The notes: generated by a model not told the origin, from the letters alone. A stretch of DNA of 64,000 bases from Mustelus asterias (GCF_964213995.1 NW_027590164.1:186001-250000), one strand, 5' to 3'. Numbered from the stretch's first letter, positions 32,841 through 63,918 are shown. Made by a program: numbers and translations.

Positions 32841-32918
32841 AGTTTTTGTACGGGTGTGTGTCGCAGTGATACGATGGGGTCACAGTGCTGAGCACAGCGA
32901 CATCCTCATACAAAAACC
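32841..32918 (+). other. DH1 segment (ATACGATGGGGT, 32869-32880) with 5' 12-RSS and 3' 22-RSS
   Basis: AGTTTTTGT-12-CGCAGTG [D] CACAGTG-22-ACAAAAACC; matches the classical shark D1 layout. Confidence 0.95.
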
Positions 32919-33227
32919 TCAGAGAAGGACTTTGCTTAAATATGTGATCAGTGCCACTGCGGAATGCCAAACAAAATGAGGATTCAACAAAATAATAGGT
33001 AGAAGCAGCATTGTTTTTTAAAAGATATAAAATGCTTCAACTTTATTGTTATTTATTTACATGCTAAGTGTGAACGGAGAGTGTAAAAGTTTCTAATCCC
33101 CTTTATCAACATCATGACCAGTAAAAGTTGAAATATCTCACTGACTCACTCTTAAACGAGATGGAAACAGGCTTTTGAAATAGCAGTAAAATCAAATCTT
33201 TGTATTTTACAGTGAACAGCCTGCCGC

Positions 33228-33292
33228 AGTATTTGTCATGCTGTGTCTCACTGTGCCTGGATGGCACAGCAGTTACTGTCAATACAAAAACC
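33228..33292 (+). other. DH2 segment (CCTGGATGG, 33256-33264) with 12/12 RSS
   Basis: AGTATTTGT-12-CACTGTG [D] CACAGCA-12-ACAAAAACC. Confidence 0.95.
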
Positions 33293-33618
33293 CCTCAGCA
33301 TTGATTGATTGAAGCTGGATCAGTGTCACTTTTAAATTCCAACTTTAATCACAATACAGTATTATTTTTGTCCAGCACTGACCACATGATAAGAATGAAT
33401 ATGGAAAATCTGTGATAATTACTCAATTATCAGTTGGTGTTTTCAATAACATATTCATGTGTTCCTCTGTGAAATATAAAACATTCGGGTCATTTATGAA
33501 TGGAGAATGGTATCCAGAAATACAATGATAATTTAATGAACATTAATTGACTTTGTTTTTCCTCTGGTTTGTGAATATTTAAAATAATGTTGCTCTTGTG
33601 TCTATTTTGTGCAGGGAC

Positions 33619-33657
33619 GGTTATTGTATGACACAACCCAGGGAATGTGACATTGTG
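33619..33657 (+). promoter_or_regulatory. JH 23-RSS
   Basis: GGTTATTGT-23-CATTGTG. Confidence 0.92.
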
Positions 33658-33705
33658 ACTACTTCGACTACTGGGGACAAGGAACCATGGTGACGGTGAC
33701 TGCAG
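33658..33705 (+). CDS. IGHJ: JH segment (YFDYWGQGTMVTVTA)
   Basis: WGxG motif; donor G|GTAAG. Confidence 0.97.
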
Positions 33706-36700
33706 GTAAGAACCATGCACTTATTGAGAAACTGGTTTGCATGTGTCTTTGTTTTATATTTTTGCCTATACTAATAATCCATTTGTTTACTTAAATGTGG
33801 GTTTGGTGGATTCTCGATTGTGAATTTTTACAATGTTTCCCGTGATTCTGCTGCAAATGGGTTCTGGAATTCCGCTGTTTCTTGACAATCGGTGCTGCTG
33901 AGGGATTCAATCCCTAGTTGTTGTGCTTTTGTGTTTATCTGTTGAGTTACTGTGTGGCTGGGTTACTTTAAAAGCCTAACGTCTGTTCAACAATTCGGCG
34001 TTTCTGCAATGTTTATTCTCGGTGACATCTAGTGGCTGCGGGTTGTACAAGTGTTTGAAATCCAACCCAACATTTTTTTAAAATGCTAAAATTTCTATAT
34101 TAATCCAGTGAACATATTCCACTCACTCACAATGCTGGTGCTGCTATGCAATATTTCTGTTTATTTTAAACATTAATTACTTTGGTGGTGGCGGATTGGC
34201 TGGAATATATATCAAAAATTTCTGTCAATGTTACATTTGATTCTGTTGAAAGAGTTTGTAGAATTGAGCTGCTTCTGCAGGAAGCAGGGTTCAGTCTCTC
34301 AGTGATGTGTTTCTCTGGTGAGGAAATTGTTTGTCTGGTCGACTTTGAATAAGTAAAATTTGTGAAATAGTTTGGTGCTTCTGCATTGTTTAAACTCGGT
34401 GACGCACGCTTTGTGATTGAATACGAACAGTCTGCGGGTTTGCAACTGCTTGACGCATGACTGCAGGCAGAAATCAGGCAGGCGTTGTTGTATTTGTATT
34501 TTTTAAATCTTAAGTGATAATTGCAGGTTAAACTAAACCACGGTTTACGCCGCTCGTTCAGAACATACTTTTTCACTGCATTCACAATTTGGGGTACCTG
34601 CAATGTTTCATCTCGGTGGCATTTGATGGCTGCAGCTTTTACCATCCAAATGTTTAAATATGTTTGAAATATGACCCAATATGAATAAAATGTGATAAAG
34701 TTTCAATACTAATTTGTTGAACACATTCCACATCCCCGCAATGCTATTGCTGTTGCTATTATTCCAGATTTCTGTTTAGTTTAATAACTGGTAAGGAGTT
34801 GGTTTGCTAGATTCGATATTGAGATTTTCTTGCATTGTTACATTTGATTCTGTTGAATGGACAATTGAACTGTTTGTCCGTGAAACGGATTCATTCCCTC
34901 ATTGAAGTGTTTTGGTGTGTTTTTGCTGAAGAGATTCTGTGGTTCGATCACTATGAATGTTTAAAATGGGTAAAATGGTTTGGCGTTACGGCATTATTTC
35001 TGCATTGTTTCAACTCGGTGCCACTGAGCGGTTAGACGTCTTCTGGTTGAATGCAAACAATCTTTGAGTTTGAAAACCCTTGTAGGGAGAAAACAAGTAG
35101 GTTTTGGAAAAATAACTAAAATGAAGATATTCCAACATTTTTATAAATTTTAACTAAACCTTACAAATTAAAGTAAATCATGACTTACAACGCTCATTCG
35201 GACACGAAGTCGTTGTTGCAATCACAAACTTCTCATTAACAAGTTTAAAAGTAAAATTAATATAAAACAAACAATTATTAATCGGTAATATAACTCCATA
35301 TTCACCCAAGATTATTTTATATTGATATAAATTAGCATTAATCCCCTTTAATAGTTCTGTTGTGCTTTTCACACAATTAACATGACCAGAAAATTTTCCA
35401 GACTGGAAATATTTTGTGATAATTCCAGAAACTATTTCAATGATAACATGCTGTTTCCACAGCAGCGCTCAGTTCAGCAATATACTTTGTATTAATCGTT
35501 ATATCCCAGATTAAGTTCGCATTCACTGGAATACGAATTTTGCAGAGTAAGACGTTACTTTTTGGCAATTTTTGTATCCGCTTATTCACATTTTGTTTCT
35601 GTGCAGCCGCAACCAGATTATTAATTCCAAGTAATTTGTAATTGGATACCGAGATAGTTTATTACTAATCTCACCTCAAAATTTGTGAAATCGTTTGGTA
35701 TTTCTCAATTGTTTCTGTATTGGTTCAACTGAGCGGTTACACGTTTTCTGGCTAAATGAAAATGAAAAAAAGAATTGAAAATTCTTGTGGGGATAAAGCA
35801 AACAGGTTTCGGAAAAATAAAATAAATATATGTTAGGGCATCTTATTCATGTTAACTGATGCTTACATATTAAAATAAATCATGAATTACAATTCTTACT
35901 GTGTCACTGTATCTCTGTTAGGGACATTACACGACCCTGATCTGTTATATTTGACGTGCTCATTTTCAGAAAAATACATTTTTGCCTAGTTTTTGGGATT
36001 TGAGACAGACAGGGAGAGACAGTTAAAAGGCGAAGGGAGTTTTGAAATGAACATCAGGTTAAGTTAAAATTTGTCTTGATTTGTTTTGTTGTTGTAATTT
36101 GACCTTTGATCAATTAGAATCAAACAGTTTGAATACACTTGACAGAGCGAACAGAGTTTTCTGACAGGTGGAATTCGCTGACACTGAAGTAATTGTTCAT
36201 ATGATTGTGTTTGTAGTAAATTGTCAACAGAAACTGACTAGAGATGGACAAGTTAATGCTTGAAATTCAAAAAGATTAATTTATATAAAATATAATAATA
36301 TTATAAATATTATTAAAATAATATTAGCTCTGCACTTAATAATAACAGCATGTCTCCCATTACTGCTAAATACAGGATAAAATTATGGGAAGAATAAATG
36401 ACAGAATAGAAGAATTGATTCTATCTGAAGCTTATGTTTAATTCTTATTAAATATTATAATGAAGAAAAGGTCTAGACTTATATTCTGCATCGTGTTTTA
36501 GTGTTACAGAGGATTTGAATCAATTGTCCTCTTTGTGTTTGCACTGTTTAATTCAGATCTTCTTTAATTCAACAATATGTTCAGTAATTAAGTTATATGG
36601 ATGGTCGAAATTACTAAATCCAGGAAGCAGAATTATTGGTTTCAAACTGCCAGGCCGTTACACTCTGTACAAATTCAGGAGTATGCATTTTAACACGTTT

Positions 36701-42100: not shown

Positions 42101-42101
42101 T

Positions 42102-42515: not shown

Positions 42516-42604
42516 GCAGACGCATGCACATTCACTCACTCTCTCACATCCTGAAGCGAGGTCTGAAGACGGTGTGATGCCCAACTTCAGGAGCATGCCA
42601 ATGG

Positions 42605-44256: not shown

Positions 44257-44556
44257 CGACACCGTCTCCGCCCATTCTCTACAGCCTGGTCTCCTCCTGT
44301 CAGCAACACAACACTGACGGCTCCGTCACCTACGGATGTTTGGCAATGGACTACTCCCCAGAAATCACCAGTCTGACCTGGAAGAAAAATGGGCAGCCGA
44401 TCAACACTGGGTTTAAGACTTACCCGTCAGTGAGAAACACGAAGGGAACCTATACCCTGAGCAGCCAGTTAACCATCACCGAGTCAGAGGGAGAATGCAG
44501 CAAAATCGACTGTGAGGTTCGACACAGCGACTCAGTCAAGAGCATTGAAATGCCAT
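44257..44556 (+). CDS. IGHM: IgM Cmu1 exon
   Basis: [44 protein letters not shown]...[15 protein letters not shown]; AG/GT phase-1 boundaries. Confidence 0.96.
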
Positions 44557-44687
44557 GTAAGTGTTGTGCAGCTTGTGTAAAACAGAAACGCTGTGGTTAA
44601 CCTGTGTAAGGCCTTGGTTATAACTCACATAAAGAGATGTGCATAATCCGGACCCTGGATTGTCCCGGTTCATGTCCATTGACTGCA

Positions 44688-44998
44688 AATGAGCCTTTTT
44701 CCTCTGATGGAGAAATCCAGCACGAGGGGGCATGGCTTTAAATTGAGGGGGGGTAGTTATAGAACCGATGTCAGGGGTAGGTTCTTTACCCAGAGGGTGG
44801 TGAGGGATTGGAATGCCCTGCCAGCATCAGTAGTAAATGCGCCTAGTTTGGGGGCGTTTAAGAGATCCGTAGATAGGTTCATGGACGAAAAGAAATTGGT
44901 TTAGATTGGAGGGTCACAGTTTTTTTTTAACTGGTCGGTGCAACATCGTGGGCCGAAGGGCCTGTTCTGCGCTGTAATGTTCTATGTTCTATGTTCTA
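44688..44998 (+). mobile_element. 5'-truncated CR1 LINE in the Cmu1-Cmu2 intron
   Basis: TRGHGFKLRG..FFTQRVV; (TTCTATG)n tail. Confidence 0.9.
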
Positions 44999-45063
44999 AT
45001 GTAGACAGAAGTTTGATTGATCAACATCTTCTGTAGGAAATAACTAATATGTGTTTTCTCAAG

Positions 45064-45378
45064 GTCCTGAAGGTGGCATCCCTCCAACCGTTATCCTCAC
45101 CGTGAGTTCCAGTGAAGAAATCACAAGTAGCAAATTTGCATTCATCGTCTGTTCAATCGTCGATTTCCAGGCACAGTCAATGACGGTGAAGTGGCTGAAG
45201 AATGGACAACCCATGGATTCAGGAATTGTCACCTCTCCCGTCTGTGAAGTGAACGGGAGCTTCTCGGCGAGCAGTCGGCTGACAGTCTCCGCTGGGGAAT
45301 GGTTCAGCAAAGCGGTCTATACCTGCCAGGTCACTCATCAAGGATTCACCCAGAGTCAGAACATCACCGGATCTCTGG
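45064..45378 (+). CDS. IGHM: IgM Cmu2 exon
   Basis: [43 protein letters not shown]; phase-1 splice sites. Confidence 0.96.
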
Positions 45379-45664
45379 GTAAGAGATGCAAACCGAGGGA
45401 GGAATTGATCATTTTACGCTCTGATTTTAATAAAAATCAAGAATTATTAAAGTCAGTACATAGCAGCGGACAACTTTTAATTTACTGCCATGTATTTGCT
45501 TCTGTGTAAGAGCTGCATTAGGATTGCTCACCATTCAGGATTTCATCAGAACGTTTCCCTCTACTTTGATCTCATATAGTGAGTGAGGTGGACTTTATAT
45601 CAGCGTTTACTGAGCTGATAGTATTTGGGGAAACGATAGGTGTCTAGTAGTGATCGTGGTTTGC

Positions 45665-46655
45665 CTCAGTGATCAGAGTTGGGACGCAATTGTTTACAAA
45701 GATGATTTGGAGTTGGGGACCAAGTATAGTGTGTACAAGTTCGCAGATGACATTAAGATGAATGGTAGAGCAAAGGGTGCAGAGGACACTGAAAGTCTGC
45801 AAAGGGATATAGATAGTTTCAGTGAGTGGGCAAGGGCAAGGGAGTACAATGTTGGTAGGAATAGCAGCAAAATTGACTATTAATTCCGGGGTGAAAATTG
45901 CTGCATTCGGCTGTGCAGAGGGATCTGGGTGTCCTTGTGCATGAATCTCAAAATGTTGGTTTGTAGGTGCAGCAGTAATTAAGAAGGCAAATGGAATTTT
46001 GTCCTTTATTGCTGGAGGGATGGAATTTAGAAACAGGGAGGTTATGGTGCAGCTGTAAAAAGTTCAGCTTATAAATTGAGGCAACAGCTGTAGTATTGTG
46101 TACAACGTTAGGCTCCTTACTTGAGAAAGGATAAACCGGCACTGCAGGGGGTGCCGAGAAGTCACTAGGTTGATTGCGGAGTTGGGAGTGTTGGCTTATG
46201 CGGAGAAATTGTGTGGACTGGGACTATACCCATTGGAATTCAGAAGAATGAGGGGGGATCTTTTAGAAACATGTAAGACCATGAAGGGGTAGAAAAGAAA
46301 GCAGCAGGAGGTGGTTTCCACTGGAGTGTGAAACTAGAACGAGGGGGCATATCCTCAAAATAAGGCGGGGAGGGGGGGGGCGATATCTGCTTGAGTTAAG
46401 GACGAACTTCTTCATCCAAAGGGTTGTGAATCTATGGAATTTCCTGCCCAGTTAAGCAGTTGAGGCGACCTTGCTGAATATTTTAAAGGCAAAAATAGAT
46501 AGCTTTTTGAACAGTAAATGAATTAAGGGTTATGATGAGCGGGCGGGTGAGTGGATCTGAGTGCACGAAAATATCAGCCATGTTCTTATTGAATGGCGGA
46601 GTAGACTCGAGGAGCCAGATGGTCTACTGCTGCTCCTAGTTCTTATATTCATATG
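45665..46655 (+). mobile_element. Degenerate CR1 LINE in the Cmu2-Cmu3 intron
   Basis: KFADDIKM..ESLQRDID; 3' end similar to the element at 305-2690. Confidence 0.88.
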
Positions 46656-46982
46656 TTAACAGCTTCAAGGTATTGTGCTCGAAAGTGCACCCACCCTATT
46701 TATAAATCAGCGTTCAGTATTGCCTTCCTGATGTCAGGAATGATATATTTATACAGGGATTGCTGCAATGCTGATTCATTACAATAACGTCTGGAGTAAT
46801 CGATTTTACTGAATAGTTTTCGCAGACCAACCTGGCTTTCCATTCAGTATAGACGATTAAAGACGACATCTCGAGGTTGATATCCCGAAGTTTTTTTATA
46901 CTACATCAGAAAGTGAAGGCTGAATACTGCTGTCTTGATTCTGAAGATGAAACTTAGGTTCATTTTCATTTCTGCTTCACAG

Positions 46983-47282
46983 ATTCTCCCACATGCACCA
47001 ATTCCAGGATCACTCTCCTGCCTCCTCCCATAGAACAGGTCCTACTGGAGGCGACCGTGACCTTAACATGTGTCATTTCTAACGCTTACGCTGGATTCAA
47101 CATGTCCTGGAGCCAAGGAAAGAAACCTTTAAAATCAGAGATTGTCGAGAAACATTCAGGCAGTGTAGTCAGCAAATTAAACATCTCGACACAAGCCTGG
47201 CAGAGTGGGGACGTGTTCGAATGTGTGGCGAGCAATGAGGATCAGCCAACTCCTTTAAGACTATCTATCCACAAGGAAGAAG
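46983..47282 (+). CDS. IGHM: IgM Cmu3 exon
   Basis: [51 protein letters not shown]; phase-1 splice sites. Confidence 0.96.
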
Positions 47283-47380
47283 GTGAGCGGCCAGACTGAA
47301 ACAATAAATGAGTCATTGTGTATATTTCCAGTGTAAGTGGTTGAGTCAATCTTTGCTATTCGGTGTATTAATCGCCTTCT

Positions 47381-47704
47381 CATAGAAACCCTACAGTGCA
47401 GAAGGAGGCCATTTGGCCCATCGAGTCTGCACCGACCACAATCCCACCCAGGCCCTACCCCCACATATTGTACCCGCTAATCTCACTAACCTACACATCT
47501 CAGGACTCTCAGGGGCAATTTTTAACCTGGCCAATCAACCTAACCCGCACATCTTTGGACTGTGGGAGGAAACCGGAGCAAACCCACGCAGACACGAGGA
47601 GAATGTGCAAACTCCACACAGACAGTGACCCAAGCCGGGAATCGAACCCAGGTCCCTGGAGCTGTGAAGCAGCAGTGCTAACTATTGTGCTACCGTGCCG
47701 CCCC
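47381..47704 (-). mobile_element. Young V-SINE (HE1-like)
   Basis: Near-identical to 23247-23612. Confidence 0.92.
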
Positions 47705-48423
47705 TGATTGATAGTTTTAGTAACTAAACACTCTGGGTCTGTAGATAATAAATTCGATGTGAGAAGTGAAAAGTAGATGAAGTAACAATGATTAGAAGAC
47801 AACGCTTAGATGGAGTAAGAAGGGAGGAGGGACGTGATTTGAACTTTAGCAGCAAAACAGACCAGTTCAGCTGAATGGCCTCTTTCTGTGCTGTAAGCTT
47901 GAAGTAACTTTCTAGTTCAGACAGAAATGTTCACCAATAAATGGATCGTAACCATCTCTGCTCCGAACTGAAAAATTGGGCAAATCCCAAAATGAAAATT
48001 GGAAACCTTTAAAAGTCAGCATCAAATACGCTTTTCTCGATCGGGTAGATAATTAAGAAACATCTCCCCTTCGTGGAAGGGTCAACAACCAGATGATATA
48101 GATTTAAGAGAAGGAACGGCATTTGTGGAGAACCTTTTTCACCCAGAGGGTGTTTTGAATGTGCAACTCAATGCCTGAAAGGTTGGAAGGGGCAGGAACC
48201 TTCACAGCATTTAAGAAACATTTAAATTAGTCCTTGAAACACCAATGCATCCAAGGCTATGGATCAAGTGCTGGATAATGGAATTAAAATAGATTGGTGT
48301 TTCATGGCCAGCGCAGTCACATTGGGCTGAAGGGCCTCTTTTCGTGCTGTAAAACTCTATGACCTGGAGTATCCAGGAGTTCCATTCCCTCCGAAACTGA
48401 CGCATGTTGTACATTTTCTACAG

Positions 48424-48815
48424 TTAAAAATCCACAGGAACCCTCCGTTTCTGTCCTCCTGCCCTCGGCGGAAGACGTCTCCGCTCAGAGATTCATCTCC
48501 CTCAGCTGTTTAGTGAGAGGTTTCTCCCCCCGAGAGATCTTCGTCAAGTGGACCATCAATGACAAGCCGGTGAATCCCGGGAACTACAGGAACACAGAGG
48601 TGGTGGCGGAGAACGGCAATGGCTCCTTCTTCATGTACAGCCTGTTATCCATTGCAGCGGAGGAGTGGGCCAGTGGCGCTTCTTACTCATGTGTGGTGGG
48701 ACATGAAGCCATCCCCTTGAAGATCATCAACAGAACGGTTGACAAATCCAGCGGTAAACCCAGTTTTGTGAACATTTCTCTTGCACTGATGGATACCGTT
48801 AATTCATGTCAATGA
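48424..48815 (+). CDS. IGHM: IgM Cmu4 exon plus secretory tailpiece (internal membrane-form donor after 48753)
   Basis: [38 protein letters not shown]...[11 protein letters not shown]...DKSS|[20 protein letters not shown], with N-glycan site and penultimate Cys. Confidence 0.97.
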
Positions 48816-48842
48816 GAATCATACATTTATATTCGACACTTC

Positions 48843-48857
48843 AATAAAAATAATAAA
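48843..48857 (+). terminator. Poly(A) signals for the secreted mu mRNA
   Basis: Two AATAAA hexamers about 30-40 nt after the stop. Confidence 0.8.
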
Positions 48858-49239: not shown

Positions 49240-49660
49240 GCAATCCCCCATCAGAGAGAGGGGGGATTGAAATTGTTAACACACTGGATTCCCACTCCTC
49301 CAGCAAAGAGAGGGGAGGGGCATTAGGTAATCCACAGTAATCCCACTGTCCCAGCAAAGTGAGGGGGTTGGAGCATTGGATAATCCACTTTACCCACACT
49401 CCACCAACAATGAGAGTGGGAGTGGCATTAGATAAACCATTGTACCCTCCCTTCGCAACAAAGAGGAGTAGTTAATCCACTGTATCAGCACTCACCCCAA
49501 AAAGAGGGGGAAGAACATTAATTAATGTACTCTACCCCCAATTTCCCAGTAAAGAGAGGAAGAGGGGAGTGTAGTTAATTCACTGTACCCCCACATCCCC
49601 AACAAAGTGAGGGGGAGGGGCAGTAGTGAACCCACTGTAGCTACAGCTCCTCAGCAGAGA
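49240..49660. repeat. Degenerate ~55-60 bp tandem repeat, about 7 units
   Basis: Recurring AATCCACTGTACCC...CAACAAAGAGAGGGG. Confidence 0.75.
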
Positions 49661-50149
49661 AAACCAAAATGGAAAGTGCTCAGTCCATAGGAGAGAACGA
49701 AACGATGAACTCACAATGCTCCCCATCCCCGAGCAGAAGATATGGAAGAGATTGGATTTCTATGGCAATTCCTCAGTCACCAAAGGTTTTCTCCCTTTCT
49801 GGCTGCAAATTCTAAACTTCCAACATGCTAATCATGTTGTGGAATATATATTTATGGAACATTATTTTCAAAGTTTAAACACTCTGTTCATCGTTTGCTA
49901 ACATTGATTTCTCACAATCCAAATTTAAACTGGTGACTGTATCCTCCCTGGGTTTTCAGACACCTATCCCTGATGTTTATGTGGATCAATAAATTGTTGC
50001 ATTAATTCAACGAATTTCGCCTTGCATCTCACAGAAGAGAAATATCAACAGAGGATGTTGAAAACATTCTCCATAATTCGCACCCGTCAGGGTCAAGGTC
50101 TATTATTTCCATCCTGTGAAACTTGGTACAGTAGTAAATATACAGGCAA

Positions 50150-51685
50150 CTGACAAAACAACACGCACACACACATGCCAGACATCTGCACGCACGCACA
50201 CAGAAACACACATCCACAAAAACACACGTAAGTACACACATACAGAAACACAAATACAGGCAAAGAAATATACACAAAGAAAAACACAAACATGCACAAA
50301 AATTACACACACAAACAGACACAAGTAAACGTATGGGCCTTCACAAAAGCAAGCATACTAACACGCACAAATATGTACACACACAAATATAGGCATACGC
50401 ACGAATACTCAAACAAAGAAATACGCAGATGCATAAGCCTATACAAACAAGTACAAAAATAAACATATATATCCATGTAAATATGCCAATAAACGCACAA
50501 TTTCACACAAGTGCAAACTCATGTACACACAATCACACACATTCACAGAAGCATAAAGGCAGACAGTCAGACACGCAAACACACACAAACAGATGCACCG
50601 ACACAAAGATACACACTTTTGTGCACACATAAAAGCACTCACATAAACGGAGAAATACACATAGAAACATACATAGGCACAGAATCACACGCACACAAAG
50701 ACACACACATGCACACACGAAAAACACATGCAAATCGACACATATTTACAAGCGTGCACAATGCACACAGACACACACAAGCCCTGACATGGAAAGACAT
50801 TCGCACATCGGTTCGCACACATACATTACTTACGCAAATGCGCATGTATACACACAAACAAACACTGAAATCATAGAATCCTCGAAATGCACATTAAATA
50901 CACACTTCTGAAAACAAACGCACAATTGTACACAGACACAAACACACACAAAAACACAGAAAAAACATGGCTCCATAAATACGCAGACAGAAATGCACAC
51001 AAACGCAGATGCAGGCACACGCAAGCAAGCAGACGCAAACACAAACATACAAAATGCAGAAGAGTATAATCACCCAAGGACATGGAATGCAAAAGAAGCT
51101 TAATTAAAGAATATGGATTCAAAGATGCATATGCTCACACACAAATATAGACACACAGACGCACGTTAACAGAGTACACATGATCACACAAATACTTAGA
51201 TCAACAGACGGCAAAATATTCAAAGACGCACATGTAGACGCAAACATTAACATGCCAATAAACAAGAGAACACAAACACACACATTAATACAAATGAGAA
51301 CATGAATATATATCAAATCATGTTTATAAAGATCTAACAAAGTACAAAAACACATTAACGCACACACACACACACACACAGATACAAACACTACTGCACT
51401 AACAGATAGTTGGAAGAGCAAAAGCATATTAGCACATTTATTAACAGGCACGAACGCATAAACATGTTTTCATATAGACATTACTAAATAAAGAGCGACT
51501 TGAACACAATGAATCACTCGTATGTAAACATTGACAGAGAAACATAATGTACACACAGATGCAGACACATGATTTTACAAAGTAACATAATGGCATAGGG
51601 TCACACATTAACACGTACATGAACGCAAACAAGTAATAGTGCAAAGCGAAATGCGCATGCGAACACAAACAAACTCAAACACAAA
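50150..51685. repeat. CA-rich low-complexity tract
   Basis: Seen directly in the sequence. Confidence 0.9.
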
Positions 51686-52237
51686 AGTGAGGTTTTTGAT
51701 GGAAGTATAATTCAAGTTACTTTTTAAAAGACATTTTCTCCAACAATTGTTCCAATAAGAAAATAACTCAACAAACACACTGAACAATATTCTCAATGAG
51801 GAACCGATTTAAGTTAATAATATAACAAGTGTTTCCATAACAGATAAACAAACGAGATGGAAACTCACATTCGACTTCTTAAATAGCAACATTTAAAGTT
51901 TACAAATAAACAGATCACAAATCTCCCTCGAAACACATTATTATATTCTCCAATAATAGGTAGCATGAAATTTTTGGAAAATGGACTGATACTGAAGAAA
52001 AGTTGCCATGTTTTCCCATACAGTCTGTACGAGGAATGTAAGAAAGAACATGTATGAAAATAGTTACAGAGATCGGTTACTGAGTGTCACGAACTCAATA
52101 GTAGATATATATGAAACTTCAATTAGATAATGAATTAATAGCTTAGGAAGGAGAAATGGGAATATACAAAGTAATATTTAGTTATGCTGGATAAATAAAA
52201 CAATCTAATTATATTTCCTCGGCTGTGACACCCATAG

Positions 52238-52365
52238 ATTCCACAGACCGTATTTGGATTGAAAACAATGAGGATGACAACAGCAACATCTGGACAACCG
52301 CTTCCACATTCATCGTCCTGTTCTTCCTGAGCATTTTTTACAGCACTGCTGTCACTCTGGTGAAG
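52238..52365 (+). CDS. IGHM: IgM transmembrane exon TM1
   Basis: [43 protein letters not shown] (CART motif); AG and GT boundaries. An alternative in-frame acceptor at 52246 is possible. Confidence 0.95.
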
Positions 52366-52505
52366 GTGAGATGATTCAATTAATCCACATTTCAAACTGA
52401 TAGAAGGGATTTGAAAAATCTCTGAACGTTTTATTGATTTAAAACTCTAACATTAATGCCCCGCATCATAAATATCTGCTTCATTATTGTATCTCTCTTT
52501 TACAG

Positions 52506-52514
52506 ATCAAGTGA
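52506..52514 (+). CDS. IGHM: IgM TM2 exon (IK*), giving a KIK cytoplasmic tail
   Basis: Polypyrimidine tract and TACAG|ATC AAG TGA. Confidence 0.9.
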   Translation: MK

Positions 52515-53614
52515 CGGGTTGAATTTTGGACGCTGTAGATTTCCCTCAACTGATTATTATGATCTCTGTATGGCTCAAATACAATATCTGCTCTCGGTGA
52601 ATCTAACAGTAAAATTCCCTCGGTTTATCATTCTGAATCTCTAACTGAGACAATACTGGCCGGTATTTCAGTTCTCAATATGAAACGTATGAGGTATTTT
52701 TTGTTGTGATGTAAACTGTAATTAATAGTTTCCCTGTAGTTTAAATTTCAAGTATAACTCAATGATTTTTCCCGTTCCTTATTCACAATTGTTCATTTCC
52801 CGATATGTTTAGCTCCTGTTTAATCTTTCTTGTGTCTGTTGTATGTGTACATATTTTGGACAGCTCGGAACAGGTGTTTTCTATTTTCAATGTGAAGCTT
52901 ATTCGCTTTATCAACTTTAAAACAAACGTTTCTGTTACATGTTCTCTGTTTTTTTTAAATAAATCTAGAGTGAAAAAAAAACTAAGTCAGACTTTGAGTT
53001 ATTCTCCAAAGCCTATCGACACCGCTCTATTTTCCCTATTACACGGTTTCCCCCTTTTCCCAGACTGGGATTTTTCCCCAGACTGTCTGGGATGTGTTTC
53101 AACTCAAGACTCTTCAGTGAAAGAGTCACTCCGCCATCTAGCGGCCCATCCGTGTAATGACAGCTTTACTGCTGCCTTTTTATGATAAACTCCAACCGGC
53201 CAGATATAAAACTCGGTGAGAACAGTTGGGTATTAACCACGAGAGACTGGGATGTTTTCTGCAAAAAACATGCAATTCGTACACATTTCCAATGATTGTC
53301 AGCAATTGGGGCCGATGAGATATACTAGGGGAAAACACGCAGAATTCCCAGATACTGGGGTCAATCTGAAACAACAGATAAACAGATTATTGGAACTGCT
53401 CCCAGAGAATGCGGTTTAATCTGATACAGAGACTCCCGCTTCTCATTTTCTCTTAGCACGCAAATAGATATTTTGCCCCCATGTTCTGTTGGAAACGCAC
53501 ACGCTCCGTTTTCTGGTGAACACACAGTGACTGTCTGCTTCACACTGTCCTTTTTGTGTCAATTAACATTGTCCCATTGATTCCATTTCGATGATGCATT
53601 ATCCGCAATAGACA

Positions 53615-54052
53615 CCATTCCCTCTGACTCCATCCCCCGAAATTACTGAACATCACCCCAGGGATCCTGTCTCTCGGCTCCATTCCTCTGAGTCTATCCC
53701 CTGAACTAACTGAGCATCACCCCAGGGATCCTCTGTCCCGGCTCCTTTCTCTCTGACTCCATCCCCTGAACTCACTGAGCATCACCCCAGGGATCCTCTG
53801 TCCCTGTTCCATTCCCTCTGACTCCATCCCCCTGAACTCACTGAACATCACCCCAGGGATCCTCTTTCCCGGCTCCTTTCTCTCTGACTCCATCCCCTGA
53901 ACTCACTGAACATCACCCCAGGGAACCTCTGTCCCGGCTCCATTCCTCTGAGTCTATCCCCTGAACTAACTGAGCATCACCCCAGGGATTCTCTCTGCCT
54001 GCTTCATTTCTGCTGTTGCTATCCCCCTGAATTCACAAGATATCACCCCAGG
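53615..54052. repeat. ~61-bp minisatellite, about 7 copies
   Basis: CTCTGACTCCATCCCCTGAACTCACTGAACATCACCCCAGGGATCCTCTGTCCCGGCTCC repeated. Confidence 0.93.
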
Positions 54053-54866
54053 GGTCTACCAATGACATTCAAACCTTCATGCCCTGACGATTCTGTCCAC
54101 TTCCATCTCATCATGTCCTTCTACAGGCTGTGGATGATATCAGCATGTCCTGAGGATTCTGGTCTGGTCCTTTGTATGTTCCTACATTCCTGAAGCTGAG
54201 ATCTTTTCATTCTAAAGTCCTGGATTTCAGCTCCGAGATTTGATTTGCTTGCATATCATATCAACTTCAAGGAGAGAAGAATGAACGGCCTGCATGCGTG
54301 TTCAGAAGAACTTCTCTGAGTAGTTACAGTTGAAAATTAAAGTTCCTTTCTGCTCGAATCTCTATTACTCACCATGTGCACCGCCCCACGCAGCCAAGGG
54401 CCGACCCTCCCTCACTCTCTTACTTTTACCTTCAGTTAGTATGACTCCCCATCTCGATGTACTTTCCCCAGGATCGGGAGATCTCACGTTGGTCAGGGTT
54501 ACCGTTTGTTTCTAACGCATGCGGCACTGAATCTGGGAATGAGTGATTGGATAATGTGGAGGGAGATTTGTACTGCATCACACCTATACCATACCTGTCC
54601 TATAATGTGATACCAGATTGTGGAGGGAGGTTTTAATTCTATCTGTGCTTAACCTATTGGACTTAATGACATGCTTTGCTGATAACCAGTATATATATAT
54701 ACATATATATATATACACACACACGCACATTTTAGTTGTTATGAGACTTTGCTGGTTAGGGCGATGACAAGATTCTATTCATAACAAATTATTAATACAA
54801 CCTTATGAAAGATGGAATTATTAATAGGAATAAAATGAACAATTTGGTGAAAGTACCCCAAGTGCA

Positions 54867-54954
54867 GACTCTTTGTTCCAGGGGTATGATTCCTGATGTT
54901 GGTATTTGAGATCAAATGTGCACGAAATGATGAGTTCAAATCCTGCACGAGCTC
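54867..54954 (+). pseudogene. Decayed tRNA-Pro-like sequence with about 16 extra nt in the anticodon region
   Basis: GACTCTTTGTTCCAGGGGTATGATTC and GAGTTCAAATCCTGCACGAGCTC match the two ends of vertebrate tRNA-Pro; the stems no longer pair. Confidence 0.5.
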
Positions 54955-56063
54955 TGTGATGTTGTTTCCTATTGCCCTATTCGCAGGTTTTGTTCATTTC
55001 TTCCCGTTACAGACAGATTGGTTCACATGGGGCTTGGTTTGAGAATCTGAGCACAAACTGCAGGGAATCCATCAACACAACACGCTCGCTCGAAAAGCAG
55101 CTTTCAAAAGGGTTGACTTGGAAGGGGACATTCATTTTATCATCATTCACCTGTTCACGGGACCCCATGATTGCCCGTTCAGGCAGTTCAGGCAGTTGGC
55201 TGGATGTTTCTGTTTATTCATTGACGAGATGCGGGTGTCTCTGGCTCGGCCGGCATTTATTACCCATCACTAATTTCCTTGAGAAGGTGGCGGTGAGCTG
55301 CCTTCTTGAACTGCTGCAGTCTATTGGTCTAGGACATCCATAGTGCTGTTAGTGGCGGGGGGAGCGGTTATTCCATGACCTTTTCCCAATGACGGAGAAG
55401 GTTCAGCGATACATTTCCAAGTCAACATTGTGGTCGGCTTGGAGGGAATCTTCCTCCTGGTAACGGTCTTGGGTTTGGAAAGTGCTGCCTAAGGTGTATT
55501 TGGTGAGTTCCTGTACCAACCATGCAAGTGGGGTGCATTCACTTACATTCCCGATTTGTGCCTTGTGGACAGATTTTGGGGAGTCAGGTGAGTTACTCTC
55601 CGCAGGATTCCCAGCCTCTGAACTGTTCTTGTAGCCACTGCACGAACTGAGAAAGTGTGTGTTGAGTCAAAATAGGAGCATGACTTTTCCTGCTCAGTGT
55701 GCAGTGGATTCTCAGCACCTCAGTTTCATTTTCTTTCTGAATGCATATTGAGGCATATGTAAGAGCTAATGCTATATGCGTGTAAAGTATTACATTCAAG
55801 TAATATTCGAGCGTTGATTCTCTGAGGGGAATGGTTCGTGGTTTGGTCGTCTTATAGTCTTTGGACAGCAGTTTGAATTCCAACACGGCAGGTTAACTCA
55901 GCAACTCAATTCAAGGGCAATTAGAGATGATTGTAAATGAATAAAGACAATCGCAATGATGGACCATTTCCTCACAAGTAAACGCAAACGTTTTGACAAA
56001 GTTTCTGCTTGAAACTTTCGAAATATCGGGCCAATGTGCAACAACTGCAACTTCTTGACATAT

Positions 56064-56136
56064 GGGCAAGTGGCGCAATGGGTAACGCGTCTGACTACGG
56101 ATCAGAAGATTCCAGGTTCGACTCCTGGTTGGCTCG
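56064..56136 (+). tRNA. tRNA-Arg(ACG) variant
   Basis: Differs from the vertebrate consensus at 3 positions (A5:G68 mismatch, G7:U66, one D-loop change). Intact B box; TTTT terminator at 56145. Confidence 0.88.
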
Positions 56137-56844
56137 GTGCAAACTTTTAAAACATGCTCACAATTTCCATGTTACTTTCGATGAAAAATGTCTTCAATAG
56201 CTTTACACTTATTCAGATAAATGCTGACCAACACTTTTTAAGCTTCTCTGGAGAAGTTAATGTTAGGAAATTGTTTATGAACTGAAACCGACTATTTTAA
56301 GTTAAATTCTATGAAAGAAAATTCATTTAATAAGATTAGGACATTAAATAAATGCTAAACTCAAATACATTTTGGACAAAATTCAACATGTCTGAGAGAA
56401 TTTACACAATTTTGTAAACTTTGTGTCATAAAATTCAGCATTTCTGATTTTGGAGAAAGCATTTGAGGCCGAGGTCAGAGCAAAGATAATATGTCTGTAA
56501 CATCGAGATTCCGATTATATTCAGCCCCAAACTGAAATCATACAGACTTCACTCACTCTAGACATGTTTCAGATAGTGATTAACTATGTTAGTCTGCACC
56601 TATAAACCCATTAAATTGGGCAGTAGACTGGACTGCTTGCTGATATGTGCACGGTGTCAAAATAGGAACGTTTCGTTTCTGTCATTGCGTCGCAAAAATT
56701 CAGCATTTCTTATTTGACACAAAGAATTTGAGGCCGAGGCCAGAGCAAATATAAAATGGCTGCAACATCGAGATTCGGATAATGTTCAGCAACAAACTGA
56801 AATCAGACAGATTTCCCTCACCCTACACAAGAAAAATAAATTAA

Positions 56845-56917
56845 CGTTTCGGCCCAGGTTTAAACTGGGGACCTTCAGCGTGTGAGGCGAACGTGACAAT
56901 CACTGGACTCCACAAAC
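56845..56917 (-). pseudogene. tRNA-Val(CAC) pseudogene
   Basis: Reverse complement GTTTGTGGAGTCCAGTGATTGTCACGTTCGCCTCACACGCTGAAGGTCCCCAGTTTAAACCTGGGCCGAAAC; acceptor stem and A/B boxes are damaged. Confidence 0.85.
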
Positions 56918-57555
56918 AAGTGACCAACTGCCCTTTTCTCCCAATTGGCCTGACTACAACGCTCAACTCCATTGTGTTGCTGCAAGTTCGAATGGTAAGA
57001 TCGAGAGCCCATGTCACTGAAGAGAAAAACACATCCGTTACGTTCAACCTGATATCTCAATTTAATTTGTACTTTAAAATTAAAAAGCTTTCGTGTGGCA
57101 AATGTCTAATGAAGCAAAGATTTCTGCGCAATCGTTAATACTTCAATCTTATCTTCCTGCGAATAATTTCAACCAAATATACTCAGTATTTGTTTCATAG
57201 GTTTATAGATTGCCTACATGTTGAAAAGGCCATTCAGCCCAGCGAATCTGCAGCGACGGCATAGTATCGTAACCAGGCCTTTTCTCCTGTCCTATCCCCG
57301 TAACACGACTCATTTCCCATATCTAATCCATCTAACACAAGGAGCAATTTAGCATGCCCGTCCACCTAACCTGCACAGCTTCATTCAACATTTAATATCA
57401 ATCAATTTATTTAATCTGTATGTCCTGATTCTCAATTTACTATTTCTGGAACTAACGATCGGTCTCTCTGCATTGTTCAGCTCCGCTCTGTTGCTGCAGG
57501 TTCTAATGGTTAGACTGAGAGTTCATGTACCTCAATACAAGAAGACAGGCGTTAC

Positions 57556-57725
57556 ATTAAACGGTTGCCCTGTTTGTGAACCCAACTCTCCACTCACCTG
57601 ATGAAGGGGCAGCACTCCGAAAGCTCGTGCTACCAAATAAACATGTTGGACTTTACCCTGGTGTTGTGATTCTTCTTACTGTGCCCACCCCAGTCCAACG
57701 CCAGCATCTCAACATCATGGCTACT
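57556..57725 (+). mobile_element. Second copy of the hammerhead-bearing short element
   Basis: CAC-CTGATGA(57598-57604)-AGGGGCAGCACTCC-GAAA-GCTC-GTG; the remainder aligns with 6143-6267. Confidence 0.8.
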
Positions 57726-58507
57726 TTCAACCTTATATCTCAACTTCTCTAGAATTTCAAAATTGAAAAGCGTTCGTCCGGCAAATGACTAAGGGGGCAG
57801 TGATTTCTGATAAAGCATAAATGCATCCTTCTCATCTTCCGTAGAATAATTTCAACCAGTTATATCCAGTTATTCAACATTAAATATCAAGATAACACAT
57901 TCTGAATTGAATATCTCTGAAATACACAGCATTGAAACGCAAACATGACTGTCCAACAAAAGCAATCGAGTCACTGGGTAATGCACATGCCATGCTGTTT
58001 ATTTGAGATTGACCACAGTCAGCTTTTTAAAAGAAATCAGTGATCAGTAGAATAAGTAAGATGGTTTTAGAGGGATATGGGCCAAATGCTCGCAATTGGG
58101 ACTAGCCTCGCGGTTTAAACAAAAGAGCGGCATGGACAAATTGGGCCGAAGGGCCTGTTTCCATGCTGTAAACCTCTATGACTCTATGACTCTATGGTGC
58201 TATCCATTCCTCAGGAAAATGGTTTCTCGGGCGGGCTGAAGCCTGTTAATATTTTACTGCTCTTTAGTTCTATGCGTTTTGTTAACCTTTAGCTCTTGAC
58301 TGTTGTGCGGGAAAGGTTAATCCAAATTAATATAATCACCGCGATATTGAGCCAGGTCTGCACCGACAGCAGTTATTTGTTCAGTCACTTCAGTTGCAGA
58401 CGGAGATCTGTGCACCGCACAGTCAAGGAGGAGTCTGTTGGCCCATTGTGCCTGTGCCAGGACTTCGCATGGGCTATCGAAATAATTCCACATCTCTGCT
58501 CTTTACC

Positions 58508-58930
58508 AAGAGTTCTGAACGAAACCCAGTCCATCACACAAACCAGCCTCCCATCCATTGACTCTATCTACACTTCCCGCTGCCTCGGAAAAGCGACCGG
58601 CATAATCAAGGACCCCACACACACAGGACATACGCTCTTCCACCTTCTTCCGTTGGGAAAAAGAAACAGATTTCTGAGGTCACGTACCAACCTACTCAAG
58701 AATAGCTTCTCCCCTGCTGCCATTGGACTTTTAAATTGATCTACCATACATTAAGCTTTTATTTCTCTACACCCTGGTTTTAATTGTAACACTGAATCCT
58801 GCACCCTCTCCTGTCCTTCTCCCCTATGTTCTGTATGTACGGTAAGCTTTGTCTGTGTAGCATGCAAGAAACAATACCTTCCACTGTATGCCACTATATG
58901 TGACAACGATAAATCCAATCAAATCAAATT
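58508..58930 (+). mobile_element. 3' end of a Rex1/Babar-like LINE
   Basis: IIKDPTHTGHTLFHLLPLGKR..RSRTNLLKNSFSPAAIGLLN*; (AAATC)n tail. A related minus-strand tail lies at about 19265-19590. Confidence 0.7.
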
Positions 58931-59629
58931 TAATCAAACCCAAGACAATTCCTCCTTTACATCTTTGAAATATTATTCAGTTATTTCATTTGGACAAACA
59001 ATGAGAGACATAGAATCTGAAATAGAGGCATTCAGTCCAATGAGCATTTTCTTAAATTTTAAACTGTATGATGACGGATTGTGATATTAAGAACGCTGAA
59101 AATATATTGTGCTGAGCTGGTCCTCACAGTTTGTCTGATTCTAGCTGCTGCTGCAACCTTACATTCGGCTCAAACCTGCAAACCCGCCCCCATTTCATTC
59201 ATCTCATAGGTGGAATTGCCCACATTTGTTTACATTATCAAAGCGGTTCGATCTCGCTGCCTTCTATCAAACTTTATACTAACTGTGGTCAGATGTAATG
59301 GTTCTTTTAATGGGAGCCCCCAGCACTAATAGCAACACAGTACGAACTGTTTCCCTTCACTTCCCACACCTCCAAGACATAAACTGTTGACGGGACCACA
59401 TTGTGTTTAATTCCTGTTCCCGTCACGGCTCCCCGCTCTGATGTCATGAATTAGCAGAAAGGAGCTCTCAGTTGATTGGATGAATCCAGAGTAAAGCGCC
59501 CAGGAGCTTATTGGATATCACCTGATGACGCTGTCAGGAATAAATTAACTTGTAGATTGTGATATCCAATCAGCTCTTTATTCTCCATTCAGTGATCTCC
59601 GCTCTTCCGACCATAGGGTCTGCAGGGTG

Positions 59630-59654
59630 TGACGTCAGACCAGCCACAGCCAAT
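59630..59654 (+). promoter_or_regulatory. TCR V promoter: CRE TGACGTCA (59630-59637) and CCAAT
   Basis: About 90 nt 5' of the leader ATG. CRE-containing elements are typical of TCR V promoters. Confidence 0.7.
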
Positions 59655-59728
59655 GCTCTCAACTTTATCTTGTTCGATCTTTTGCAGTTTTCGGAGCCAC
59701 AGGTCCCGGCAATCCAGGAGCAGCAGCA

Positions 59729-59774
59729 ATGCGGCTCCCCTTTTTCTCTCTGATCTGGGTGACATTCATTGTTG
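59729..59774 (+). CDS. TRAV/TRDV: TCR alpha/delta V leader exon (MRLPFFSLIWVTFIV)
   Basis: Hydrophobic peptide; phase-1 donor G|GTGAGT, in frame with the exon at 60470. Confidence 0.88.
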
Positions 59775-60469
59775 GTGAGTTTAACACTTTAAAAATGAAT
59801 TATTTTCTGGAGGGATAAAGTTGAAAAGCAGGACATTCATGTTATACAGGTATTGGACCTGCCGTAGAACACAAATGAATCCTTGCGAGTGGTTTTAATC
59901 TTTTGAAAATAGATTCGAAAAGCACACTGCAACGGCGATTTCGAGAGATGGTACCAGGATTGGAAGATGAGAGCTATCAGAATGCAAGGTTATGATTAAC
60001 TTCTCCACTGACGAAAAAAACCTGACTGATTTATTTACAATTAAATAGAGGATTGGTGTGGTGGACGGGGAGAGGATGATTCCACTTGTGGAAGGATTCC
60101 AAATATATGTCTCATGATTCCAAGGAAACAAAGAGATTAACTGGGAATCGGAGAGAAACAGCTTTCGAAAGAGTTGGGTAGAATGTGGCTCATATTAACA
60201 CAATGAACACTTGAGGAGAGGAGCAAAGATTAATTTAAAGGTAAACTAAACTAAACAGCTGAGGAAGAAAGGGACAGATGCATTGAGAAGAGGCGAGAGG
60301 GAGGAATCTCCAGGGGATTGTAAACGGGAACATAGATCAGTTGGAGAGAATGTGGCATGATTCAATACATTCAATACATATTTTTATGTTACACTGTCAG
60401 TGAATTTTCTCTCTTAGTTCAATTGAACTTTGAAACAATGTTTTTTCTTTCTTTAACCGTGTGTTTCAG

Positions 60470-60773
60470 ATCTGAGCGATGGAGATTCTGTTACTCAGCG
60501 GGAATCCTCACTCACACGGACAGAGGGAGAAGATGTCACTTTAAACTGCACCTTTAACGACGGTGCTTATTATTTATTTTGGTACCGTCAATATCCAGGC
60601 AGACAGCCCGAGTTTGCAGTCCGGAGAGACAAGAACGGCGGTTTTGAATTAAAGGCGGATTTCGCTCAGACCCGGATTTCTGATTCAGTCCAGCAGTCAG
60701 ACAATTTGTACCGAGTGACTATTTCGGAGTTGCGGCTGTCTGACACTGCGGTCTATTACTGTGCACAGAGTCT
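60470..60773 (+). CDS. TRAV/TRDV: TCR alpha/delta V exon, open (missed by the ORF track)
   Basis: DLSDGDSVTQRESSLTRTEGEDVTLNCTFNDGAYYLFWYRQYPGRQPEFAVRRDKNGGFELKADFAQTRISDSVQQSDNLYRVTISELRLSDTAVYYCAQS. Confidence 0.93.
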
Positions 60774-60812
60774 CACAGTGATGAGAACGAGTGAAATCCT
60801 CGTACAAAAACT
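60774..60812 (+). promoter_or_regulatory. 23-RSS
   Basis: CACAGTG-23-ACAAAAACT. Confidence 0.95.
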
Positions 60813-62194
60813 GCCGCAGGTTTCTGAGTCACAGCTGCTGTCTGTCGAGTGTTGTTTCTAACAGCGGGTTATAAACTAACACGTCAATACATTCCTGTGA
60901 ACGCAAACCAGACCACAATTCACACAAACACCATCTAAAATCGTTCACAGATTCTGTCTGATTATTACATTCACTGTGCGAGGGAAGAATTAGCTGTTGT
61001 TTATTTGGAATCACCGGGAAATCGGCACGAACATTGAGAATTCAAAATGCTGCAGGTAGCCTTGAACTAGTTGTACCCTTGTTCTGATGTTTCAAAGAAC
61101 ACTCGGGGCAAAGAAACCAATGCTGTTCGGTTTGATATGTCAGTCAATAGTGTAAACTGATGCCCGCCTGCTGAGGCAAATCCTCATAATCACAACAGCC
61201 TGATTAAACATCTCTCAATGTTACAGTAATGAAATAAAATATCAACTGAGAATCGAAGAGAAACTTCATTGGAAAGAGTTCGGAAGAATGTGACTCATGT
61301 TAACACAATGAACACTTGACACATATTAAAACTCAGAATTCTTAACAGTAAAGGTACAAAAGTTTATTTCAATACATGCTTAGAATCCAATGAACAATGA
61401 TTAATATCTCTATTAATAATCTCGAAGAATAAGTTTGGTGTACTCTAGACACTGGAACATTTGGTAAGAAAATCGACTGAATGCAAAAATCTAATTGAGA
61501 AGAGCGTCAGAAAGTTCCTGAAGGACAACTAGGGATGGGCAATAAATAGCGGCCGAGCCAGCAAAGCCCACATGCCCGAAAGTCTTTCTTTAAAAGTCTG
61601 CTGTAATCACCAGAAGTGCTATGGGAAATCGAAACCGCGGGATAAGTCTTCATGCTCAGACAAATATTTTGTTGGGATATGGGCCAAACGCGGGCAATTG
61701 GGACTTGCATAGTGGTTAGAAAAGGGTAGCATGGACAAGTTGGGCAGAAGGGTCTGTTTCCATGCTGTAAACCTCTATGACTCTGTGACTACTTCCATAT
61801 CCGTTATTTCCCTGAATATCCACAAATCTATCAACTGCCTTCAAGAAATCAAACGACTGAACAATCATCGCTCTCTTTGACACATAGAGTGCATTAAAGC
61901 GAATGTATGGTTTTTGACTGAGATGATTTTTGAGATATGCCTCTGATGAGTTTTATTTCATGTTGTAATTATTTCATGTTGGTCATTACAGCACCAGAGT
62001 CTCCTATTCAGAGTTGCTCGTAAACGACAGAAACTACTATAAAGAGGGATTTTACATACACTGACAGACATTCAGCACAAAGAACCTGATCATTCGGTTT
62101 AATTGGTTTTAATGAGATGATTTTGTTTCTATTAACTGTTCACAATCCAGCTCAGAGATCGGATTCAGTGAGAGGAGGTGAGAATGCCTTTGCT

Positions 62195-62671
62195 GGTTTT
62201 TGTACGGACTAACTGTGTCTCTGTAACTGCGGTTCAGCGCACACTGTTACAGATACACGGCAGAGTCAGAGACACGGACCCCGGTGATATTTAATGAAGC
62301 TGTTTTCTTGTCTCTGTCCAAATTAGCAGAAAACTGGTCCGAAAAATCAGGAGACTTATCCCCCTTCCCCTGGCCGTAACTTTTCAATAAATATCTCGGA
62401 GCTTCTCCGGGATACAGGATGTACCAGAATAGAGTTTGGTCAACGTACTTAGCTTTATAACTGCAGTTCAAAATTACCGTCTGTACTTCCTGAACCGTTA
62501 ATTCAGGCGGCTCCTGGGAAACTGAAGTTTGGCCATTGGTTCCTGTAACAACATATAGACTGTGTGAGAAATCTGTGAGTGAATATAACCCATTGAACAC
62601 ACACTGAGGATTTGAGCTCAGACTCACGGGGCAGCATGTCCATTATCATCAGTAGAACACGCAGGGAACAT
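62195..62671 (-). pseudogene. TRAV/TRDV: TCR alpha/delta V pseudogene (leader 62671-62628, V exon 62542 to about 62232, damaged RSS)
   Basis: QTSVSQEPPELTVQEVQTVILNCSY..LFWY..DSAVYL*QCALN. The leader exon is 44 nt (out of phase). RSS reads CGCAGTT-21-ACAAAAACC. CRE TGACGTCA at 62826-62833. Confidence 0.9.
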
Positions 62672-63569
62672 GTGGTTCCTGAATGGACAGTAAACAGCGA
62701 CACTGTTTAAAATATGTTGTTGCTTCTAGTCTTATATCACGGAGTAAACTCAGATCAGAGGCAGCTTCAATCATTGGCAAATTGGGGGGTTTTCCCAGTG
62801 TTGCAAATGGCTGGTCGCCTTGAGATGACGTCAGCTGTGGACCAAACACTGTTAGTGGTGGACTAAACACAGCTGGCTCCCTCCAAACACATTCCATCCC
62901 GGGCTGTGTGTGTTTTTCTCACTCTCTTTCTCTCTCCATGAAAGGTGAATAACGTTATCAGTTACACTGTCTCTTTCTCGGTTAACCCTCTTTCGTTCGA
63001 ACTCAATATCCCCCTTTTTATAGATAGATTTTTCTTTCTAAATAAAGTTAAAAATGAAATAAATAATTTACCCTCATTTACTCTGTGGGTATTAATGAGT
63101 GCATCCACTGCATGAACATAATAGTAGTCACTGCTTTATTTATACCGGGGATAAGTATTCACCCAAGTCCACATTGACTTGCGTTTCCACTGGGATTACT
63201 CTTATACTGGGAAAGTACTGATTCAATCAGTCATTATTTCTGTCCAGAAACTTCAAAATGTGACAACTCTCAGTGTGCCTTTAATATTGGATCACATTTA
63301 ACAGGTTCCCCTGACAGATAGGCATCTGATGCAGAAAGATTAGAAGTATTGATTTATTAAGTTATTCACCCGAGACATCTGTGGGTTTTGTGATTGGATT
63401 TATCCAGGAGTAATCTGAGCGCCAAATGTCACATTTTCCCAACTGTGACAATCACTGACGTTAGGGAGGGAAAGCCACTCAGATGAGGCTGCATTGTCAG
63501 GTTCATTTTCTCTGAAATTCAACGCAATGTGTTTTGCGGACAAGGAACCATTGATTGTGGACCTGCGCC

Positions 63570-63608
63570 AGTTTTTGTACGAGGTCCGCGGGAGCCTCAT
63601 TTACTGTG
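63570..63608 (-). promoter_or_regulatory. 23-RSS
   Basis: Minus strand CACAGTA-23-ACAAAAACT. Confidence 0.92.
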
Positions 63609-63918
63609 GGTCTGAGTGCACAGTAATACACGGTGTTGTCTAACATCTTCAAATCTTTCATGGACAAGTGAAAAGTGTTTTGTGTCTGGCTGAGATTCCC
63701 GCTGAAATGTTTAAGGCCGGGAGCCGTATCGGTAAATCCATAACTATCGGCTCTGAGCAGATACTGAGGAGCTCGGTGTGGATACTGGCGATGCCAGAAC
63801 AGGACATAGACTGCATCTGAACTCGGTACCGAGTAACTGCAGGGTATTGCTGAATCTTCACCCTCTGCTGCTTCAACTCCTGGTTCTGACTGGGACACTG
63901 AGTCACCGTTACTCATCT
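63609..63918 (-). CDS. TRAV/TRDV: TCR alpha/delta V exon, open; leader lies beyond the window
   Basis: TTTTCAG acceptor; GDSVSQSEPGVEAAEGEDSAIPCSYS..LFWHRQYPHRAPQYLL..DNTVYYCALR. Confidence 0.92.

Follow-up and report, generated by a model that had tools for sequence, protein, structure and literature searches.

A T-cell receptor V pseudogene inverted behind an IgM minicluster, and repeated C-delta clusters, in the assembly of Mustelus asterias

[quoted passage not shown] The heavy-chain V (VH), two diversity segments (D1, D2) and the joining segment (JH) are arranged with their recombination signal sequences (RSS, spacer lengths in brackets) as VH(23)-(12)D1(22)-(12)D2(12)-(23)JH in less than 2 kb, and are followed by Cmu1-4, a secretory tail and transmembrane (TM) exons. 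This matches the layout of shark immunoglobulin heavy-chain (IgH) genes described in PMC2435157 (cited, like the other papers below, from part of its text). The features on which the argument turns are the following:

31996..32506, plus strand: IgM VH, open (leader 31996-32041, exon 32163-32467, 23-RSS 32468-32506)
32841..32918, plus strand: D1 (D 32869-32880), with a 5' 12-RSS (32868-32841) and a 3' 22-RSS
33228..33292, plus strand: D2 (D 33256-33264), with a 12-RSS on both the 5' and 3' sides
33619..33706, plus strand: JH (J 33658-33706), with a WGQG motif and a 23-RSS
44268..48812, plus strand: Cmu1-Cmu4 and secretory tail, aligned exon parts stop-free
52240..52515, plus strand: IgM transmembrane exons, bounds approximate, read from the sequence
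58055..64000, unstranded: cassette homologous to the C-delta 3' DNA of paralogous clusters (88-96% to the C173 and C110 flanks)
63570..63608, minus strand: 23-RSS of V63, CACAGTA-23-ACAAAAACT
63609..63918, minus strand: V63, inverted TCR alpha/delta-type V exon, open over 102 codons

The signals are well above background, since 23-RSS with at most two mismatches occur three times in the window, where 30 base shuffles gave 0.03 on average. The V63 exon is a V-set match in Pfam (E 1e-11) with both cysteines and the tryptophan present, and its closest single-domain relatives in the PDB are TCR alpha V domains. The original prediction described an open minus-strand V 3' of Cmu with a good 23-RSS, and 5' 12-RSS on D1 and D2 about 31 kb away. 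All these elements lie where it put them; the V63 signal is near consensus (two bases off), and measured distances are 30,740 bp to the 5' 12-RSS of D1 and 30,353 bp to that of D2. The orientation of the signals agrees with the 12/23-legal inversion then proposed: given the 5' 12-RSS of D1 and D2 and a 23-RSS on the minus strand, the join would be an inversion, with V-D-J-Cmu built on the minus strand. It was also correctly reasoned that a deletional join at the 3' 12-RSS of D2 would remove JH-Cmu. Human TRDV3 is an inverted V 3' of C-delta, of the same type as mouse Trdv5. The likeness drawn to such mammalian genes holds as well, as Trdv5 is a 23-RSS V downstream of C on the opposite strand, which joins Trdd2 by inversion through the 5' 12-RSS of the D (PMC4995090).

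The prediction omitted two further TCR-type V between Cmu and V63, and a TGA in the V63 leader, beyond the window edge. The leader exon lies at C132:250046-250094 (64046-64094 in window numbering) and is assigned to V63 because a paralogue with an open leader, in C178, has a leader intron of the same length (128 nt). It carries an in-frame TGA at codon 4 and its translation reads M-E-L-stop, so that V63 has no open leader spliced in phase. Three ATGs upstream of V63 are out of frame or meet a stop after 3 codons, and the sole in-frame ATG lies within the exon and yields no signal peptide. An alternative leader 966 nt upstream was rejected, as it also carries a stop. The TGA is not a base error of the C132 contig, since it is identical in the two closest paralogues, C110:69340 and C173:174499, the latter being linked to C-delta. 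V63 is a TCR alpha/delta-type V and, judged by its leader sequence, a pseudogene. With this leader closed and no in-frame alternative, a productive V-D-J-Cmu chain from V63 is not expected.

For the predicted TCR V-DH-JH-Cmu chimera, the join thus stands as legal at the DNA level, but the leader stop leaves a protein from V63 unsupported. That V63 works as an inversional partner for the IgM D-J and gives such chains is highly improbable. The legal RSS geometry, the open exon and the intact IgM cluster would favour this, and the opposite chimera (IgM or IgW V on TCR-delta D-J-C) is known in sharks; against it stand the stop common to the paralogues, the lack of an in-frame alternative, the positions of the other family members given below, and the report, in the cited part of PMC2435157, of nurse shark IgH rearrangement solely inside its own minilocus. 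By itself, V63 is a dead passenger V. Protein searches with V63 gave no match among 50 longer-protein candidates or 1 similar-length candidate, which is weak evidence, and no full-length chain showing which C the V63 family uses. A search of representative proteins returned distant matches only, mostly multi-V gene models. V63 is without cover in four presumed-RNA runs, all from other organisms, which is no evidence either way.

V63 comes last in a fixed set of three V (one plus, one broken minus and one minus, in that order) that spans about 3.1 kb and has at least 24 copies in the genome. Its other two members in the window are:

59729..60812, plus strand: V60, intact TCR alpha/delta-type V (leader 59729-59774, exon 60470-60773, RSS at 60774, CACAGTG-23-ACAAAAACT)
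62235..62540 (approx.), minus strand: broken TCR-type V, with a stop and without a usable RSS

A homologous V60 leader and exon are joined in one contig of run X1 (presumed RNA, from another organism). V60 lies on the Cmu strand; were it joined to a D 5' RSS, the coding joint would end up on the excised circle. Because of this same-strand orientation of its RSS, V60 would give no chromosomal TCR V-IgM chain; neither V60 nor V63 is expected to yield one.

A special tie of V63 to IgM is not supported by the genome-wide distribution of the family. All the position counts are lower bounds. They use 144 of the 150 V63 matches listed (leaving out 6 that are the second half of a split match), 62 of the 150 V60 matches listed (those at 68% or more) and 105 of the 150 Cmu4 matches listed (leaving out 44 that reach 44% or less, and 1 that is a second piece). 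The V63 family has 153 genome matches, on the same contigs as at least 105 Cmu4 matches. At least 12 of its matches lie within 50 kb of Cmu4, three downstream and inverted, six downstream on the same strand and three upstream on the same strand, so that no preference for the downstream-inverted position was found near Cmu (3/12 among the matches listed). As for the 24 listed cassettes, three lie within 30 kb of Cmu4 (two inverted, one not) and 12 lie 26.7-34.7 kb behind a C-delta TM exon with V63 inverted, which makes C-delta the commonest partner. The proportion of 3/12 and this commonest partner are the reasons why a special link to IgM finds no support. V genes face both ways upstream of J-alpha (C546) and after C-delta (C436), and arrays resembling C2H2 zinc-finger genes are seen after the V cassette at C132:272-347 kb and C71:9.053-9.055 Mb.

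The cassette continues at least 5 kb past the window edge. Homology of the window to other IgM clusters stops at 53194, and positions 58056-63999 align at 88-96% to flanks running unbroken to C-delta in C173 and C110. Because the DNA from about 58,055 on matches these flanks, the inverted-V-after-C layout most likely comes from TCR-delta. In a tree of V with its flanks, the window groups with C110:69k and C173 (ultrafast bootstrap, UFBoot, 100), all three with the TGA, and the sister group of this V63 clade comprises five copies, four of them linked to C-delta (UFBoot 98). The only other inverted IgM-adjacent copy listed (C420) belongs to a different clade and is frameshifted. V63 is damaged in every one of the 12 copies linked to C-delta: five are frameshifted, four have in-frame stops, one has a leader stop, and two have leader insertions only.

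Very probably, V63 is dead and was duplicated in the germline from a C-delta 3' flank to its place behind IgM; RAG could invert it to D1 or D2, with no receptor predicted. In such a scenario, the C-delta 3' flank would have been joined to the IgM cluster by germline duplication or exchange, either by pasting of the cassette behind IgM or by swapping of IgM for the C-delta body. The exchange near 58,055 may have been assisted by a repeat, the left edge of the cassette being in one that matches 53 of 123 loci. The leader stop would predate the move, and the IgM cluster would keep rearranging with its own VH, 400 bp from D1. Two RAG-based origins were rejected: the left edge of the cassette is without heptamer or RSS and inside a common repeat, and the identity break with C71 (63598, inside the RSS) is a 200-N gap.

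Several observations weigh against this account. The tree was built on about 1 kb per copy; the lesions of the 12 C-delta-linked copies are partly inherited in common, and are thus not 12 independent events; and the common stop may have spread by gene conversion. In the near-identical copy of the locus in C71, the 200-N gap falls exactly over V63 and its leader, and the stop is unconfirmed there. Twelve of the 24 listed cassettes are without C-delta within 45 kb, and these copies suggest that the cassette may have originated in a general V field. Moreover, in thymocytes RAG has access to IgH D-J and TCR V at the same time (PMC2435157): IgH rearrangements were present in 44 of 48 nurse shark thymocytes, among them V-DDJ forms that leave the 5' RSS of D1 free. 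With such partial rearrangements, rare non-productive DNA-level joints to the V63 RSS are possible.

This last point leads to a weaker form of the inversional idea, compatible with a dead V63 of germline origin, in which V63 would act as a RAG decoy in thymocytes and leave non-productive D1/D2 inversions or JH-Cmu deletions detectable by polymerase chain reaction (PCR). The near-consensus RSS and the free D1 signals are in line with a decoy role, as is the share of 6-8% of the Trdd1/Trdd2 signal joints that Trdv5 takes in mouse (PMC4995090); but D1 has the cluster's own VH at 400 bp and V63 at 30.7 kb, and two putatively insulating elements lie between D1 and V63. We regard such a role as possible, though rather doubtful. 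The two elements are:

53133..53144, minus strand: CTCF-like motif, exact consensus match, a weak lead only
56063..56137, plus strand: single tRNA-Arg(ACG) gene, lying after the IgM 3' end and before the V cassette

Both are inside a boundary zone proposed earlier, as candidates for insulation only. The motif is at the end of a conserved 3' block common to IgM clusters (shared to 53194). With the CTCF core consensus, a scan allowing one mismatch found 3 sites in the window against 3.06 expected, which is chance level. The motif at 53133-53144 has drifted in the other three IgM clusters compared; another CTCF-like motif, at 34024-34035 (minus strand), is identical in four of four. A broken VH stands at 19628-19873, about 12.5 kb upstream of the functional VH, and comparable relics are found ahead of many clusters.

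The C-delta side of the exchange turned out to be repeated as well. A genome search with the TCR constant region found 19 copies of one TCR TM exon (C110:983416, C154:714545, C71:7141643, C71:11046964, C71:12274115, C173:145590 and 13 more) and two of another. A TM with both Arg and Lys is of alpha/delta type. In all 19 copies the C exon, single and of C1 type, is open and has AG/GT splice sites; it occurs in 14 distinct sequences and is accompanied by a connecting peptide and the TM. The Arg and Lys pattern is matched by the TM in 18 of the 19, and the TM of C850 is stop-free. A PDB search with the C exon returned generic Ig C matches only. The copies are assigned to C-delta because a J with a 12-RSS and a D lie upstream, because the TM has Arg and Lys, and because the other two TM exons end J-alpha arrays. 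Upstream DNA was analysed for eight copies, with a J with a 12-RSS in all eight and a D in seven. Four of these have an open VH-like V of their own with a 23-RSS, one 12/23 D, and J numbering three or four; of the remaining four, one is preceded by a TCR V, a pair of D and J, two by D and J, and one, within 34 kb, by J only. A contig of run X1 fits the C-delta exon from acceptor to donor (96%).

Over 9.5 kb, the C-delta loci are 88-99.7% alike, and thus differ by up to 12%; they form 18 groups at 99.5% and 8 at 98%, have different J sets, and three of them lie on one scaffold. As second copies of one locus are at least 99.7% alike, this implies a minimum of 8-9 C-delta loci in each haploid set, with 18 as the upper figure, dispersed among the roughly 100 Cmu4 copies of the assembly. 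An assembly artefact, with the IgM-cassette junction or the many C-delta copies due to misjoins or uncollapsed haplotypes, has to be weighed here. Near-identical second copies do exist (window versus C71, 99.8-99.97%; C71c versus C850, 99.7%), and DNA runs of a related organism, G, show the C-delta exon either as one long contig per half (X21) or in few variants (X19, X22), a hint of a low copy number in G that counts against a general amplification. But the C71 copy crosses the same junction unbroken, from window position 48755 to 63598, the divergence of the C-delta loci, their J sets and the scaffold common to three of them speak against uncollapsed haplotypes, and organism G is probably another species, with a 2-3% difference over the exon and at most 0.49 of the IgM words. 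An artefact is thus improbable.

The J-alpha/C-alpha genes form two separate blocks, at C71:18.37-18.43 Mb (about 27 J) and C546:137-242 kb (more than 100 J). The blocks differ in TM sequence, and in the one long stretch that they share they are 83% alike. Upstream of the J-alpha arrays, C-delta was not found in 100 kb of C71 or in 137 kb of C546, and these are possibly two TCR-alpha loci uncoupled from delta. An odd V-like exon lies upstream of the VH-like V in delta clusters (C173:105983-106450; C110:950794-951157, with a weak 23-RSS), and at C71:12521088-12521381 a VH runs directly into D-like codons and a 12-RSS, as in a germline-joined VD cluster.

On balance, though with little to spare, the sequence favours at least 8 working VH-like V-D-J-C-delta miniclusters among the IgM clusters, uncoupled from J-alpha/C-alpha, with germline exchange putting TCR V in the inversion position behind Cmu, the intact case being in C166. 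There, C166:171492-207200 holds an intact IgM cluster (VH, D1, D2, JH, Cmu1-4) and an intact inverted TCR V with open leader and open exon, an RSS of CACAATG-23-ACAAAAACT and a distance of about 33.7 kb from D1. Judged by these features, this pair is a candidate that fits the inversional TCR V-D-JH-Cmu idea of the original prediction better than V63. The multi-copy cluster-type TCR-delta is known here from a single assembly.

The usual description of TCR loci is that of translocons in which a single delta constant gene sits inside the alpha locus, and organisation in clusters is described as a trait of shark Ig. In the elasmobranch antigen receptor complex (Flajnik et al. 2025), IgM miniclusters show linkage with TCR alpha/delta, and V of TCR alpha/delta type, in both orientations, lie between IgH clusters (PMC12227049). 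The window is alike in having TCR-type V exons on both strands among IgH clusters, and such mixing is thus already published. The two differ in that 19 C-delta copies are found here, with none in the 100-137 kb upstream of either J-alpha array, whereas Table S1 of that paper, in the part cited, has one TCR-delta constant entry each in catshark and stingray, beside TCR-alpha, and no entry with that label for great white shark or epaulette shark. The single entry in catshark and stingray also counts against a general C-delta amplification. Numerous C-delta copies in a shark were not reported in the literature that we surveyed; outside this survey lie the principal papers on the nurse shark locus, which may describe extra C-delta or post-C-delta V.

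The geometry of mouse Trdv5 recurs in the 12 paralogous cassettes, where the upstream C is actually C-delta. In the window, unlike for Trdv5, the upstream C is Cmu and V63 is a pseudogene, the third of several post-C V of mixed orientation; the likeness described here is one of geometry. Trans-rearrangements of shark IgH V to TCR-delta and TAILV are known (as cited in PMC12227049, PMC5931798, PMC6795676 and PMC3457774), and the VH-like V beside D-delta in four of the eight clusters is similar to this Ig-TCR mixing. The known cases put an Ig V on a TCR C, unlike a TCR V behind Cmu, and our literature searches found no published report of TCR V on Cmu. Stand-alone VH-like V-D-J-C-delta units away from TCR-alpha also recall the extra TCR-delta locus with VH-delta of galliform birds, the duplicated TCR-mu clusters of marsupials and monotremes (PMC3457774) and the two TRDC-J-V clusters of one newt haplotype (PMC12698447). 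Those cases, as far as the cited parts describe them, involve one extra delta locus or a separate mu chain, in contrast to a minimum of 8-9 such loci, and a maximum of 18, in each haploid set of Mustelus asterias.

In the window, an IgM cluster and a TCR-delta cluster have probably exchanged flanks in recent time. A dead V beside IgM is ordinary in a complex known to mix Ig and TCR segments, and the origin of the cassette matters more; the unusual part is the repetition of TCR-delta clusters in the Mustelus asterias genome, not V63 itself. The intact pair in C166 makes the reciprocal chimera, TCR V on Cmu, testable by one PCR. If confirmed, many intact delta clusters would raise the question of allelic exclusion for gamma-delta T cells, as for shark IgH. 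Such clusters would, besides, open a path in the germline to delta chains that bear VH with no need of trans-rearrangement, and would be a present-day counterpart to the proposed origin of the bird VH-delta loci and of TCR-mu.

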